Part shown: positions 15,653 to 21,196 of the stretch, one piece after another | Numbering within the stretch: position 1 is the stretch's first letter | Layout of the letters: every line of letters begins with the position of its first letter | Program-made: the position numbers and the translations under genes | Notes under the pieces: model-generated | Told to the model about the DNA's origin: nothing | Database searches by the model: none | Seen by the model: the letters and a program-made list of their open reading frames with translations, nothing else | Assembly (NCBI GenBank): GCA_031257175.1 | Contig: JAIRPE010000086.1 | Coordinates: forward strand, 1-56,354 | Direction: 5' to 3' | DNA length: 56,354 nucleotides | Source of the DNA: Eubacteriales Family XIII. Incertae Sedis bacterium | Lineage (GTDB): Bacteria > Bacillota > Clostridia > Peptostreptococcales > Anaerovoracaceae

Positions 15653-15688
15653 CAGGCGCCGATCGGCAACAAAACCGATCGGCGCCTG
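15653..15688. terminator. 14-bp perfect hairpin between convergent genes (likely bidirectional terminator)
   Basis: CAGGCGCCGATCGG (15653-15666), loop caacaaaa, CCGATCGGCGCCTG (15675-15688). No strong U-tract on either side. Confidence 0.55.
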
Positions 15689-15752
15689 TTGTTGCTCAGC
15701 CGAATAAACATTGCGCATTTGCCGGTCCTTTATCGGGCGGCGCGTTCTCCCC

Positions 15753-17222
15753 TCACCTCAACTCCCGCAACGTCCGAACCAAATAATCTATCTCCGACGA
15801 AGTATTATAAAAAGCCAGCGACGGCCTCACCGTGGATTGAAGCCCGAAATGCCGCAGCACGGGCTGGGCGCAGTGATGCCCGGCCCTTACCGCTATCCCC
15901 GCCGAGCTGAGATAAGCGCCCACGTCCTCGGTCTTATGCCCGTCCAGCACGAAGGACAGCGCGCCCGCCCTCTCCGCCGCCGTCCCTACCAGCTTGAGGC
16001 CCCGCACCTTGGACAACTCCTCCACCGCGTACTTCATCAGGGCGCTCTCGTAAGCGTGTATGCTCGCCATGCCTGCGGCGGATACGTAGTCCAGCGCCGC
16101 GCCCAGCCCCACCGCGTCCGCCACGCTGCCCGTCCCCGCCTCGAACCGCGCCGGCGCGTCCTGGTAGACAGTGCGACGGAAGGTCACGTCCTTTATCATG
16201 TTGCCGCCGCCCTGCCAGGGCGACGACGCCTCCAACGCGTCGCTTCTGCCGTACACGGCCCCTATCCCCAGGGGGCCGAACACCTTGTGCCCCGAGAACA
16301 CGAAGAAATCCGCGCCCAGGGCGTTCACGTCCACGGGCATGTGGGAGACCGACTGCGCCCCGTCCACCAGCACGGGGACGCCGTGCTTATGGGCTATGGC
16401 CGCCATCTCCTCCACGGGCGCCACCGTCCCCAGGGCGTTGGACACGTGCGCCATGGAGACGAAGCGGGTATGCGGCCCGAAGAGGGCGGCGTACTCCGAC
16501 AGGGCTATCTGCCCGTCCGCGTCGATAGGCGCCACCCGTATCAGGGCGCCCGTCTCGGCCGCCACCATCTGCCAGGGCACGATGTTGGCGTGATGCTCCA
16601 GCAAGGTGAGGATTATCTCGTCCCCGGCCTTCAGGCGAGGCTTCAGGAACGCCCGCGCCACCAGGTTGATCCCCTCCGTGGCCCCCCTCACGAACACGAT
16701 GTTGTCAGGCGACGGGGCGCCTATGAACCGCGCCGTTTTGTCCCTGGCGGCCTCGTAGGCGTCCGTTGAGCGGGCGGCCAGGGCGTGCGCCCCCCTATGG
16801 ACGTTGGAGTTCTCGTGAAGATAATAATAGCTTATCCTGTCCACCACTTGCCTCGGCCTCTGGGTGGTGGCGGCGTTGTCCAGCCAGACCAGCGGCCTGC
16901 CGTTGATGTTTTCTGACAATATAGGGAAATCCTGACGCAGCCTCTCCACGGGCAATTCCCCCAAATAAGGCGGGACTGAAGGAGGCCCGTAATCCGTCGG
17001 CGCGAACCCCGCGCCCAACGCCTGCCCCCATGCCTCCGCCCTGCCCTTCTCGGGGTCTGACGTCAGCTCGGGCGCGTAAGCCCCGCCTTGCCCCGCGTTC
17101 GGGCTTAGGCCCACGCCAGGCCCGCCATAGCCCCCCGAAACCACGCCCCCGCCTGGGGCCGCGCCCCATACGCCGTCCCAGCCGCGCCGCGCCGCCCGCT
17201 CAATATCACCTCGCGTAATCAT
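15753..17222 (-). CDS. SufS/CsdA-type cysteine desulfurase with a disordered N-terminal extension (Family 2A encapsulin cargo-like)
   Basis: Start at MITRGDIE (ATG 17222), overlapping the shell gene by 17 nt. An extension of about 95 aa rich in Gly/Pro/Ala (GGGVVSGGYGGPGVGLSPNAGQGG...) precedes the class V aminotransferase fold (DNAATTQ, HANIVPW, FSGHKVFGP PLP-Lys, RAGHHCAQP catalytic Cys). Confidence 0.88.
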   Translation of the reverse strand: MITRGDIERAARRGWDGVWGAAPGGGVVSGGYGGPGVGLSPNAGQGGAYAPELTSDPEKGRAEAWGQALGAGFAPTDYGPPSVPPYLGELPVERLRQDFPILSENINGRPLVWLDNAATTQRPRQVVDRISYYYLHENSNVHRGAHALAARSTDAYEAARDKTARFIGAPSPDNIVFVRGATEGINLVARAFLKPRLKAGDEIILTLLEHHANIVPWQMVAAETGALIRVAPIDADGQIALSEYAALFGPHTRFVSMAHVSNALGTVAPVEEMAAIAHKHGVPVLVDGAQSVSHMPVDVNALGADFFVFSGHKVFGPLGIGAVYGRSDALEASSPWQGGGNMIKDVTFRRTVYQDAPARFEAGTGSVADAVGLGAALDYVSAAGMASIHAYESALMKYAVEELSKVRGLKLVGTAAERAGALSFVLDGHKTEDVGAYLSSAGIAVRAGHHCAQPVLRHFGLQSTVRPSLAFYNTSSEIDYLVRTLRELR

Positions 17223-18153
17223 AATATTCACCAACCTCGACTTCTTCCAACACGCCCAGCGCGTCGTCAGCCAAAATCGCCGCCGAGCAGTAAAGCGACA
17301 GCAGATAGGACGCCACCCCATTGTCGTCAATGCCCCTGAAACGGACGGACAGGCCCCTGGACTGCTCGTTGGGCAGCCCCGACTGGTAAAGCCCTATGAC
17401 CCCGCGCTTCGCCTCGCCCGTGCGCACCAGCAGTATGTTGGTTTTCCCGCCCTTGGCCTTGGGGTTTTTCAGCCCGTCCACGAAAAGCTTGTCTGTGGGT
17501 ATGATAGGCACGCCCCGCCAGGTAACGAACGTCCCGCCGTTGACGCTCGCCGTCACCGGAGGCACCCCCCTGCGGGTGCATTCGCGCTCGAAAGCCGCGA
17601 TGGCCCTGGGGTGGGCCAAAAAAAAGCCGGGATCCTTCCACACCTTGCTGATAAGCTCGTCCAAATCGTCAGGAGTGGGCGCCTTCTTCAGGGGCTTTAT
17701 CCGCTGCCCGTCGGCCGCGTTTTTCAAAAGGCCGTAATCGTCGCTGTTGATTATCTGGCTTTCCTGCCGTTCCTTAAGGCTCTCTATGGCCAGCCCTATC
17801 TGCTCGCCAAGCTGGTCGTAGGGCGCGCCGTACACGTCCGAGACCTTCGTGTCAACGTTTATGACGGTGGAAATTGAGCTGAGGTGGTACTCCCTGGGCT
17901 TCGCCTGGTACTCCACGTAGCCCTGGGGGATGTCCAGACGGTCGGGATCCTGGCTGCACAACACGTCCAACGGCGTGTCCCCCTCCACTACCCTGTTGAC
18001 GCGGTAAACGCCGGCTTCCAGCCCCTTAAACTCGATGAACCTGGTCACCCATCTGGGCGTCAGCGCCCCGTACTGGGGCCTTGTTTTCGTCACGTCGGCC
18101 AATTGGAACGCCGCCTCGCGCCCCAGCGCGTTCAATAAATTCCTGTCAGGCAT
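17206..18153 (-). CDS. Family 2A encapsulin nanocompartment shell protein
   Basis: 315 aa. N-terminal signature TKTRPQYGALTPRWVTRFIEFKGLEAGVYRVNRV matches the Family 2 encapsulin pattern (TK..PQ...TPRW......G.YRVNR). No cNMP-binding insertion, which points to subfamily 2A. Sits directly upstream of, and overlaps, a desulfurase with a disordered N-terminus. GGAGGG RBS. Confidence 0.8.
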   Translation of the reverse strand: MPDRNLLNALGREAAFQLADVTKTRPQYGALTPRWVTRFIEFKGLEAGVYRVNRVVEGDTPLDVLCSQDPDRLDIPQGYVEYQAKPREYHLSSISTVINVDTKVSDVYGAPYDQLGEQIGLAIESLKERQESQIINSDDYGLLKNAADGQRIKPLKKAPTPDDLDELISKVWKDPGFFLAHPRAIAAFERECTRRGVPPVTASVNGGTFVTWRGVPIIPTDKLFVDGLKNPKAKGGKTNILLVRTGEAKRGVIGLYQSGLPNEQSRGLSVRFRGIDDNGVASYLLSLYCSAAILADDALGVLEEVEVGEYYDYAR

Positions 18154-18226
18154 GATAATTCCCTCCTCTTTAACATTCTCTTTAACATTTCCCCGCTCGG
18201 ATCATCCCCAACCCAAAGCCTTCTTG

Positions 18227-20099: not shown

Positions 20100-20170
20100 G
20101 ACTTCCCTCCTTCCCCGCCGCCCGCCGCGCCTACGACGGATCAAGCGATACGGCGGCTCCCGCGCCGCGC

Positions 20171-21070
20171 CTACGCCTCCCAGAAATCGTCCGTCAGGTA
20201 TCTGGAGCCGCCGTCGCACAGCACCGTCGCCACCAGTGCGCCTTCGGGCAACGTTTTGGCCAGCTTAAGCGCGGCGGCCACGTTCCCCCCCGACGATATG
20301 CCCACGAAGAGGCCCTCCGCCGCGGCGAGGCGCCTGGCCATGGCATAGGCTTCCTCCGTGCTGACCGTGACTATGCCGTCAATCAGGCTTTCGTCCAGAT
20401 TCCCCGGCTTTATGGTGGAACCCATGTGCTTCGTCCCCTCTATCCCATGGAAAGGGGAGTCGGGCTGGACGGCGTAGGCCCTCACGGAGCCGTTCTCGCG
20501 CTTCAGCCTGCGCGACACGCCCGTGAATGTCCCCGAAGTCCCCATCCCCGTTATGAAATGGGTGACGCCGCCCTCGGTCTGCTCCCATATCTCAGCCCCC
20601 GTCGTCTCGTAGTGCGCCGTCGGGTTGGCCGGGTTGTTGTACTGGTCAGGATAGAAAAAACGCCCCGGCTCCGCCGCCACCGCCGCCCGAACCGCCAGAT
20701 AAGCCCCGTCGGAGCCTTCCAGAGGGTCGGTCTCCACTATCTCCGCGCCGTAGCTCCTGATAATGCGCTTGCGCTCGGGGCTGGTGTTGGCGGGCATATA
20801 GAGCCTCACGCGGAATCCCAGGCTGGCGCCGAACATGGCGTAGGCAATGCCCGTGTTGCCGCTGGTGGCGTCCGCGAGCGCGCCGCCCCCGACCAGGGCG
20901 CCGCTTCTCATGCCGTCCAAAATCATGGCCTTGGCGGCCCTGTCCTTCACCGAGCCGCTGGGGTTGAAAAACTCCGCCTTGGCGAAAACCCGCGCGGCAA
21001 CCCCGGCTTCCCTGCTTATCCGCGCCAATTCCAGCAACGGAGTGCCTCCGACGGCGCCAAGCAAATCCAT
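20171..21070 (-). CDS. PLP-dependent cysteine synthase family protein (CysM/CysK-like)
   Basis: Start at MDLLGAVGGTPL (ATG 21070), 5 nt after GGAGG. PLP-lysine motif NPSGSVKDRAA, TSGNTG loop, GMGTSGTFTG phosphate-binding loop. Confidence 0.88.
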   Translation of the reverse strand: MDLLGAVGGTPLLELARISREAGVAARVFAKAEFFNPSGSVKDRAAKAMILDGMRSGALVGGGALADATSGNTGIAYAMFGASLGFRVRLYMPANTSPERKRIIRSYGAEIVETDPLEGSDGAYLAVRAAVAAEPGRFFYPDQYNNPANPTAHYETTGAEIWEQTEGGVTHFITGMGTSGTFTGVSRRLKRENGSVRAYAVQPDSPFHGIEGTKHMGSTIKPGNLDESLIDGIVTVSTEEAYAMARRLAAAEGLFVGISSGGNVAAALKLAKTLPEGALVATVLCDGGSRYLTDDFWEA

Positions 21071-21167
21071 AAAACCTCCTTCGCGGCCCCCTGCGCCCAC
21101 CCAGGCCAAAGACGCCGCCATATTTCTTGTATTTCATATATACATAGTCAACATATATGTTATACAT

Positions 21168-21196
21168 ATTATATCCCCGCGCGATGGCCTTGTCAA
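21168..21196 (-). promoter_or_regulatory. consensus sigma-A promoter of the cysteine synthase-encapsulin operon
   Basis: Minus strand: TTGACA (21196-21191), exactly 17 nt, TATAAT (21173-21168). Followed immediately by the AT-rich palindrome ACATATATGT (21151-21160) and TATACAT direct repeats. Confidence 0.65.

Follow-up and report, generated by a model that had tools for sequence, protein, structure and literature searches.

Six consecutive genes on the minus strand of contig JAIRPE010000086.1 (assembly GCA_031257175.1, a Family XIII Incertae Sedis bacterium of the Eubacteriales; the 56,354-nucleotide stretch analysed is hereafter the window) join two sulfur systems at positions 21070-15753. 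It is a single copy of a cassette, apparently spread laterally, in which a Family 2A desulfurase encapsulin is combined with a CysO-type thiocarboxylate route. Among the open reading frames (ORFs) of the window, the genes run in the order pyridoxal phosphate (PLP) enzyme, JAMM peptidase, sulfur carrier, E1, encapsulin shell and cysteine desulfurase. An initial annotation, made from the DNA letters, had proposed this six-gene layout as a single operon; all of its ORFs are present, and its six identities were borne out by profile searches (matches to PALP, Prok-JAB, ThiS, ThiF plus Rhodanese, NF041162/SrpI-like and Aminotran_5). The junctions are tight. Gaps of 71 and 73 nucleotides (nt) separate the PLP enzyme from the JAMM gene and the E1 from the shell gene, respectively. 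The JAMM and carrier genes overlap by 10 nt, the carrier and E1 genes share an ATGA overlap, and the shell and desulfurase genes overlap by 17 nt. Shine-Dalgarno sequences lie 5′ of the PLP-enzyme, JAMM, carrier, E1 and shell starts, with GAAGGAGG upstream of the PLP-enzyme ATG at 21070.

The first gene (20171..21070, minus strand, as for all six) encodes a CysM-like PLP beta-replacement enzyme of 299 amino acids (aa; PALP, E 1.6e-73). Its best NCBIfam model is cysM (TIGR01138, 339 bits, under the cut-off of 394), and it scores under both the cysM and the cysK equivalog cut-offs. The top PDB matches are the CysM enzymes of Salmonella and Escherichia coli (2JC3 and 2BHS, 2e-71); Mycobacterium tuberculosis CysM is absent from the best 60 PDB matches. 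By these matches the enzyme appears nearer to enterobacterial CysM than to that of M. tuberculosis. The M. tuberculosis-type CysM route first suggested for this locus is borne out in its gene set but not in the affinity of its PLP enzyme. Conservation of catalytic residues was scored over 42 aligned cassettes, and Lys42 and the S70-G-N-T-G loop are kept in 41-42 of them. The adjoining gene (19677..20099) encodes a 140-aa JAMM/MPN+ zinc peptidase (Prok-JAB, E 8e-23; top PDB match 2KCQ, 1e-32), in which the motif E23 plus H84-x-H86-x7-S94-xx-D97 is invariant across all 42.

The third gene (19390..19686; ThiS, E 8e-8) encodes a CysO-like ubiquitin-fold sulfur carrier. Here the CysO-type assignment of the initial annotation finds support, the top PDB match being M. 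tuberculosis CysO over its full length (3DWG chain C, 1.9e-16). The protein ends in VPAIAGG91, a motif kept in 39-42 of the 42 cassettes, followed by a seven-residue tail, STRWRAK. All relatives' carriers also continue past the Gly-Gly, either with a variable tail, whose length ranges from 1 to over 20 residues, or as a fusion to the E1. Because residues follow the Gly-Gly, the carrier is a precursor for which a trimming step is required. Cutting after Gly-Gly would be needed both for carrier maturation and for product release, which would account for the JAMM gene found in nearly every cassette.

The fourth gene (18227..19393) encodes a ThiF-rhodanese E1 adenylyltransferase of 388 aa that resembles MoeZ and Uba4 (ThiF, E 3e-83; Rhodanese, E 7e-11; top PDB match Uba4, 6YUB). 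It scores 463 bits against the MoeZ model PRK07878 (cut-off 647) and also stays under the MoeB equivalog cut-off, so it can be called only MoeZ-like, with orthology not proven. Across the 42 cassettes, little or no variation is seen in its GxGGxG motif, its two CxxC motifs, Cys196 and the rhodanese loop C345-KIGQR. The possibility that its rhodanese domain derives from the encapsulin-associated rhodanese by fusion to an E1 was considered and rejected: the loops differ (CKIGQR here, CRSGNR there), and the E1 aligns end to end with the MoeZ and MoeB models.

The shell gene (17206..18153) encodes the 315-aa protein that had been annotated as a Family 2A encapsulin and expected to have an HK97 fold, and both points are supported. 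It scores 469 bits against NF041162 (cut-off 380) and matches the SrpI-like family PF19307 (E 7e-93). Residues 9-313 are homologous to the HK97-fold shells of Acinetobacter baumannii (8T6R, 1.4e-111) and Synechococcus elongatus (6X8M, 1.5e-107), and by this homology the window shell is predicted to share the fold. An inserted domain that binds cyclic nucleotides (cNMP) was not found in it by Pfam, and the 2B model matches only residues 62-308, with its C-terminal part; since the absence of this domain separates Family 2A from 2B, the shell belongs to 2A. An AlphaFold2 model of the shell was discarded for its low predicted local distance difference test score (pLDDT 34.5); the alignment behind it (24 homologs, 77-84% identical) was too shallow and uniform. 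Residues 226-234 (window 17455-17481) form a Lys-rich eight-residue insertion, DGLKNPKxK, that is conserved in the subfamily. It occurs in related loci L004, L037, L055, L063, L073 and L076, including relatives that have no carrier module, and is missing from the shells of A. baumannii, S. elongatus and Azospirillum (8T6R, 6X8M, L077 and L078).

The last gene (15753..17222; Aminotran_5, E 1.6e-140) encodes the presumed cargo, a cysteine desulfurase whose SufS type, as first proposed, is clear (sufS model TIGR01979, 529 bits, cut-off 475). Its top PDB match is 8KG1, at 547 bits versus ~427 bits for ordinary SufS, and Lys313 and Cys451 are conserved. Against the cargo model NF041166 it reaches 758.6 bits (cut-off 800), with only model positions 225-623, the catalytic part, aligned. 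The disordered N-terminus that had also been proposed is here a Gly/Pro-rich extension of just 94 aa (window 16941-17222); the corresponding domain of desulfurase cargos in published systems spans ~225 aa (PMC10836720). Relatives' N-termini share three motifs, [YW]GLPxxxE[IL]AxLAxxYFPEF, xYxPxV[VL]P and [YR][VI]GxxxL, and the window extension retains the second and third. At the other extreme, six deltaproteobacterial loci (L048, L051, L053, L062, L064 and L066) have desulfurase N-terminal domains of 260-550 aa, rich in Pro, Gly and Ala.

The association of the two modules extends well beyond the window. A genome scan with one genome per species returned 68 loci, which were annotated by tblastn with the six window proteins; linkage was counted over 67 non-redundant loci with shells at least 60% identical. 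The scan was keyed on exact peptide words of the query and thus covers shells of about 60% identity or more rather than serving as a census of Family 2A. An E1-rhodanese gene lies within 8 kb of the shell gene in 55 of the 59 non-redundant relatives that have at least 1.3 kb of upstream DNA, so the linkage is no one-off juxtaposition. In most relatives this gene sits 16-120 nt upstream of the shell. The desulfurase gene follows the shell in all 59 relatives with enough downstream DNA, and of the 43 whose upstream DNA spans 4.2 kb or more, 32 have all four genes of the CysM-type module. Gene tables list the identical six-gene order in an Oscillospiraceae metagenome-assembled genome (MAG) and a Spirochaetia genome, and shell plus desulfurase only on a Desulfovibrio contig. 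Canonical shells that are 53-58% identical (A. baumannii, S. elongatus, Azospirillum) come without the carrier module. The same six deltaproteobacterial loci have a longer E1-shell spacer of ~1.0-1.3 kb without a convincing gene; a hidden gene there was considered and rejected, as the ORFs look spurious.

The hosts are diverse. The best 120 shell homologs are 77-84% identical to the window shell and, going by the names of their sources, come from Treponema and other Spirochaetia, Synergistaceae, Desulfovibrio, Oscillospiraceae, Family XIII, Peptococcaceae, Azoarcus, Burkholderiaceae, Leadbettera, Brenneria and Pectobacterium. Judging by isolate and locus-tag naming, we take most of the shell homologs to be from termite-gut MAGs or single-cell genomes. 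The cassette is found in seven phyla: Bacillota, Spirochaetota, Synergistota, Thermodesulfobacteriota, Pseudomonadota, Campylobacterota and Elusimicrobiota. Cultured hosts include Brenneria, Pectobacterium versatile and Leadbettera azotonutricia, the first two with a seven-gene form that begins with an acetyltransferase. An EpsC-type serine acetyltransferase is encoded in 34 related loci (159 and 166 bits against a model cut-off of 150), which points to O-acetylserine rather than O-phosphoserine as the probable substrate.

Pairwise identities of all six proteins are correlated (Mantel r 0.62-0.80), and mean six-protein identity is nearly the same between phyla (0.65) as within them (0.72). On these grounds the cassette appears to spread laterally as a unit. 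The window's nearest cassettes are those of Spirochaetota and Synergistota rather than that of the other Family XIII MAG. The pattern points to repeated lateral transfer, apparently mainly in termite-gut and rumen communities.

An informative variant occurs in five rumen Lachnospiraceae MAGs (L047, L049 and L055-L057; L055 2197-10536). These lack CysM and instead encode one or two Cys_Met_Meta_PP (MetY-type) enzymes, a second ThiF, a JAMM peptidase and TusA, followed by a fused carrier-E1-rhodanese, the shell and the desulfurase. One of the Cys_Met_Meta_PP enzymes passes the O-acetylhomoserine sulfhydrylase model (637 bits versus a cut-off of 495). The link of carrier and E1 to shell and desulfurase thus outlasts a change of end product. 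The in-frame fusion, ThiS-ThiF-Rhodanese of ~486 aa, is also present in Azoarcus and a Selenomonadaceae MAG (fusion loci L042, L067, L047, L049 and L054-L057; for example, L055 6489-7949) and would need cutting after its Gly-Gly.

Two further relatives depart from the compact layout. In Leadbettera azotonutricia (L074, CP001841 759639-770754 and beyond), glycoside hydrolase-like and sulfatase-like genes part the carrier module from the shell pair. The desulfurase gene of this locus is followed by genes for a small Fer4_5-like protein, an acetyltransferase and a Cys_Met_Meta_PP enzyme and, further on, by a second PALP gene and an ATP-binding cassette (ABC) transporter. In Aliarcobacter cibarius (L076, plasmid pACIB 62694-73208), the cassette is borne by a mobilizable MOBV plasmid, where a gene for a sulfate-binding protein adjoins it and cysE and cysK come after the desulfurase. 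This copy is disrupted: an IS110 element lies between the JAMM and carrier genes, and with the loss of its ThiF part to an IS5 element the E1 is reduced to a remnant of the rhodanese. Elsewhere, contig BNUT01000004.1 (L030 and L031; also L002) carries two apparently identical inverted cassettes, with genes for IS1595-family transposases in the ~7 kb that separates them. If this is a single-cell assembly, as the name suggests, an amplification chimera is as likely as a true duplication.

Several features of the window bear on how the operon is expressed. The perfect sigma-70-type promoter noted initially, TTGACA-17-TATAAT (21168..21196, minus strand; 12 of 12 consensus positions), is the sole exact match in the 56-kb window, and none of 100 shuffled sequences gave one; it presumably acts as the operon promoter. 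Just 3′ of its −10 box are short AT-rich palindromes, ATATGT-N3-ACATAT and AACATATATGTT (21136..21169), that might serve as an operator, a speculative assignment. Half-sites of the CATATA/TATATG type also occur 3′ of the promoter in the Oscillospiraceae locus L001. In a Treponema MAG (L018 4952-5133), a 21-bp tandem array of ~9-11 units is found directly upstream of the CysM-like gene; a palindrome, either GTCTACAGAC or TAGTCTGTAGACTA, recurs in every unit, and the array may be an operator array. Within the 73-nt gap between E1 and shell, the window has a weak promoter-like site, TTGACA-18-GATGAT (18201..18230, minus strand; 10 of 12 positions), a possible internal promoter ahead of the shell gene. 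No terminator-like hairpin was seen in this gap. The palindromes or the internal site could permit regulation of the operon halves.

The operon is separated from a convergent PNPOx-like gene by a GC-rich hairpin (15653..15688) with a stem of 14-15 bp, in which 11 of 14 pairs are G-C. This is the terminal hairpin of the initial annotation, and it withstands a folding analysis: a folding energy of −61 kcal/mol (z = −4.3) was computed for the 141 nt around it. A clean U-tract was not found directly after the stem on the operon strand. The hairpin is likely a two-way terminator. By Rfam, the operon leader holds no riboswitch or other RNA family, a tRNA being the only match in the window. The flanking genes encode the PNPOx-like protein, a CNNM/CorC transporter, FapA, FlhA, FtsK, HisRS, a class A penicillin-binding protein and SLH-domain surface proteins. 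These are ordinary chromosomal genes and none is sulfur-related, so the cassette is an island in an unrelated neighbourhood. The FlhA shares 84% identity with proteins from MAGs of Clostridiales Family XIII / Anaerovoracaceae, in keeping with an Anaerovoracaceae-like host. A 218-aa ORF directly upstream of the operon promoter (21569-22225) has no Pfam match. Also encoded in the window are a surface protein of 1934 aa, which carries Listeria-Bacteroides repeats together with SLH domains, and a second protein of SLH/cadherin-like type (2121-7925 and 46460-48745); the window's GC content falls to 0.49-0.50 around 36-40 kb (36001-40000), versus ~0.60 elsewhere.

Encapsulins of Family 2A are already known to keep company with sulfur genes. 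Their published neighbour tables list class V aminotransferases, hexapeptide transferases, rhodaneses, transporters, LysR regulators and PALP proteins (PMC8049743), and ThiF, ThiS and JAB are absent from them (PMC8049743, supplement 2). Genes for rhodanese, acetyltransferase, shell and desulfurase combine into four recognised Family 2A operon types (PMC10836720); what the linked acetyltransferase does is stated as unknown (PMC11284452). A follow-up on the rhodaneses applied a length filter that excluded those longer than 200 aa, among them fused and multi-domain forms (PMC11284452), and for this reason the fused E1-rhodanese was overlooked. The initial annotation knew of no description of the two modules as one transcription unit. 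In agreement, no paper in the searchable literature connects an encapsulin with ThiF, a thiocarboxylate or CysO in the relevant sense, although raw neighbour tables may include these genes uncommented. No Family 2 row with ThiF was found among the rows covered from the supplementary tables of a Nature Communications encapsulin paper.

A close parallel in layout is the srp operon of S. elongatus plasmid pANL, whose order is cysK/srpG, epsC/srpH, srpI, cyd and rhodanese. As in the window, a Family 2A shell gene (its product 55% identical to the window shell) is followed by a desulfurase cargo gene, and genes for cysteine synthesis stand beside a cysteine-consuming enzyme. The paradox of spending cysteine to make cysteine, pointed out for the window at the outset, is therefore not new, since srpG-srpH-srpI-cyd already pairs a cysteine synthase and an acetyltransferase with a shell. 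Unlike the window, the srp operon has no carrier, E1 or JAMM gene. Its rhodanese is a small free-standing protein encoded after the cargo gene, whereas that of the window is fused to the E1; its cargo has a much longer N-terminal domain, and its shell lacks the eight-residue insertion. The window cassette is best seen as a carrier-protein version of the S. elongatus operon, which uses free sulfide chemistry.

For function, the reference point is A. baumannii, whose operon encodes a rhodanese, an acetyltransferase, a shell and a desulfurase, and whose shell (8T6R) is the closest solved relative of the window shell. There, elemental sulfur (S0) storage has been shown experimentally and the rhodanese has been proposed for recovery; it is for such relatives that assembly of a closed T=1 shell, cargo packaging and S0 deposition have been demonstrated. 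The packaged A. baumannii desulfurase lays down crystalline S0 without an acceptor, and the largest pore of the shell, 6 Å, keeps out proteins and glutathione (PMC10836720). The route by which this S0 is recovered is stated as unknown, with the rhodanese suspected (PMC10836720, PMC11284452). The A. baumannii rhodanese is a single-domain protein with the loop CRSGNR, in contrast to the C-terminal E1 domain of the window with its CKIGQR, and the operon has no carrier, JAMM or CysM genes.

The carrier half of the cassette has its counterpart in M. tuberculosis, where CysM, CysO and Mec+ together with MoeZR supply the same four protein types. The window E1 has the domain order of MoeZR, and the best solved relative of the window carrier is M. 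tuberculosis CysO. Set against that pathway, the window carrier needs trimming and the PLP enzyme is nearer to enterobacterial CysM. M. tuberculosis CysO ends at its Gly-Gly with no tail, moeZR lies outside the mec-cysO-cysM operon, and CysM uses O-phosphoserine; we know of no encapsulin linked to this pathway. Trimming has precedents in the HcyS-HcyD-HcyF-MetY system of Wolinella succinogenes and the QbsC-QbsD-QbsE system of Pseudomonas, in which carrier residues after the Gly-Gly are removed by a JAMM peptidase. QbsC is an E1-rhodanese fusion. In the homocysteine pathway of Wolinella, which draws its sulfur from sulfite reduction, a MetY-type enzyme consumes the thiocarboxylate, as may be compared with the Lachnospiraceae variant of the cassette. 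To our knowledge, neither the Hcy nor the Qbs system has a link to an encapsulin.

How the two halves could work together is suggested by analogy. We propose that they form a sulfur bank that avoids free sulfide, a reading that we regard as on balance the probable one and in which the coupling of shell to E1 is our own addition. The shell would package the SufS-type enzyme through its disordered N-terminus, and the packaged desulfurase would convert cysteine to alanine while S0 piles up inside. On the other side, the JAMM peptidase would trim the carrier tail to expose Gly-Gly, the E1 would adenylate the trimmed carrier, and a persulfide on rhodanese Cys345 would turn it into a thiocarboxylate. 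The CysM-like enzyme would then condense the carrier thiocarboxylate with O-acetylserine, and the JAMM peptidase would free cysteine from the carrier. The shell would thus be the deposit and the rhodanese-E1 the withdrawal point, taking up sulfane sulfur once it has come out of the shell in small-molecule form.

Serine acetyltransferases are inhibited by cysteine, and metabolite levels such as the supply of O-acetylserine from a cysteine-inhibited acetyltransferase could set the net direction, with deposit when cysteine is plentiful and withdrawal when it is scarce. Both the flow from the shell store to the rhodanese-E1 and this control of direction we infer. The proposal starts from the gene content, intact catalytic motifs, conserved linkage and spread over phyla described above; sulfur storage in the shell and the CysO chemistry are carried over from the literature on relatives. 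A sulfur store had been one of the two ways out of the paradox offered by the initial annotation, and it agrees with the experiments on the A. baumannii system (PMC10836720). In the Lachnospiraceae form the objection falls away, as the sulfur of cysteine would end in homocysteine. More tentatively, and with some doubt, shell S0 might be the dedicated donor for the thiocarboxylate pathway, rebuilt into cysteine (homocysteine in Lachnospiraceae) without ever becoming free sulfide.

Several points weigh against the sulfur bank. A single promoter for deposit and withdrawal genes would set up a futile cycle if neither metabolites nor an internal promoter kept them apart, and there is just one internal promoter candidate, the weak site at 18230-18201. 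To reach the rhodanese, sulfur would have to get out of a shell whose pores measure 6 Å. A serine acetyltransferase gene was not found within the window. The GLP...YFPEF motif, present in 53 of the 61 desulfurase extensions compared, is missing from that of the window in all three frames; with an extension this short and without that motif, packaging in the window organism is likely, yet less certain than in relatives. Three loci (L004, L037 and L063) have shell and desulfurase with no carrier module within 8 kb; in a fourth (L012), the 1.4 kb of DNA available upstream likewise holds none. Hence the shell is not strictly dependent on the module. Finally, the correlated distances among the six proteins could partly stem from shared ancestry rather than joint transfer.

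Some of these points serve an alternative in which the halves are merely co-located and co-regulated, for sulfur limitation or redox stress, and pass no sulfur between them. The CysO-type route would then draw on sulfide, thiosulfate or a housekeeping desulfurase, and the shell would independently store or detoxify cysteine sulfur. Family 2A operons do collect sulfur genes in general (acetyltransferase, cysteine synthase, rhodanese, transporters), and MoeZR-type enzymes take thiosulfate in vitro (PMC3227635). The four loci in which no carrier module was found nearby would also be expected, as would the two unrelated genes that split the halves in Leadbettera. Against such independence, an E1-rhodanese gene stands upstream of the shell in those 55 of 59 relatives across seven phyla, a change of PLP enzyme type leaves the core of carrier, E1, shell and desulfurase in place, and the cassette appears to travel as a unit. 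We therefore consider independent halves rather unlikely.

A protein-to-protein relay was the original proposal for the window, with the encapsulated desulfurase handing persulfide to the E1 rhodanese. That version is unlikely: pores of at most 6 Å exclude proteins and glutathione, and in the studied systems the desulfurase is cargo and deposits S0 without an acceptor (PMC10836720). A relay would need an unpackaged desulfurase fraction or transfer before packaging, the shell merely regulating how much enzyme is available. Relays from a desulfurase to a rhodanese-E1 are known (Nfs1 to MOCS3; IscS to YnjE to MoeB; cited in PMC3227635), and the short extension of the window desulfurase, with one of three clade motifs missing, could weaken packaging. 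However, the shell gene is intact, its product is 82% identical to those of relatives, it overlaps the desulfurase gene by those 17 nt, and most relatives have the full set of loading motifs. A direct relay is accordingly improbable, and the sulfur bank remains the preferred account.

A different product, a thiol other than cysteine made by the PLP enzyme from the carrier thiocarboxylate or another nucleophile, would suit scores under the cysM and cysK equivalog cut-offs, and the MetY-type enzymes of Lachnospiraceae indicate that the module can feed other products; however, the closest solved relatives are true cysteine synthases B, a serine acetyltransferase co-occurs in 34 loci and the genes correspond as a set to those of the M. 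tuberculosis cysteine pathway, making this very improbable. Least credible is ubiquitin-like tagging, in which carrier, E1 and JAMM peptidase would conjugate and deconjugate SAMP-like modifiers on the shell, its cargo or other proteins: the best NCBIfam names are indeed SAMP1 for the carrier, desampylase and SAMP-activating E1, and paper titles indicate that Urm1/SAMP-type carriers are capable of both jobs, but these matches are all under their cut-offs (SAMP1 at 59.1 bits against 60), there is no E2-like gene, a cysteine or homocysteine synthase is always adjacent and the best structural relative of the carrier is CysO.

The system does not amount to a new kind: it is a conserved variant of the operon that encodes Family 2A desulfurase encapsulins, here combined with a CysO-type pathway. 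Its interest is that two published questions meet in it: how encapsulin-stored sulfur is recovered, and what donor serves MoeZR/CysO-type pathways (PMC10836720, PMC11284452, PMC3227635). The primary donor of sulfur to mycobacterial MoeZR, for which a desulfurase has been proposed, ‘remains to be elucidated’ (PMC3227635). In at least 55 genomes from seven phyla, the cassette places genes for a candidate donor and a candidate acceptor next to each other, and the pairing persists when the final enzyme shifts from a cysteine to a homocysteine synthase, which yields a specific, testable prediction. Cultured and tractable hosts exist in Pectobacterium versatile, Brenneria and Leadbettera azotonutricia.

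If shell S0 does serve as that dedicated donor, encapsulin-stored sulfur would gain its first recovery route and a CysO-type pathway its first physiological source of sulfur, with the whole route travelling as a single mobile cassette among sulfur-poor gut communities. Its distribution over termite-gut and rumen bacteria suggests strong selection for a tight sulfur economy in these habitats.

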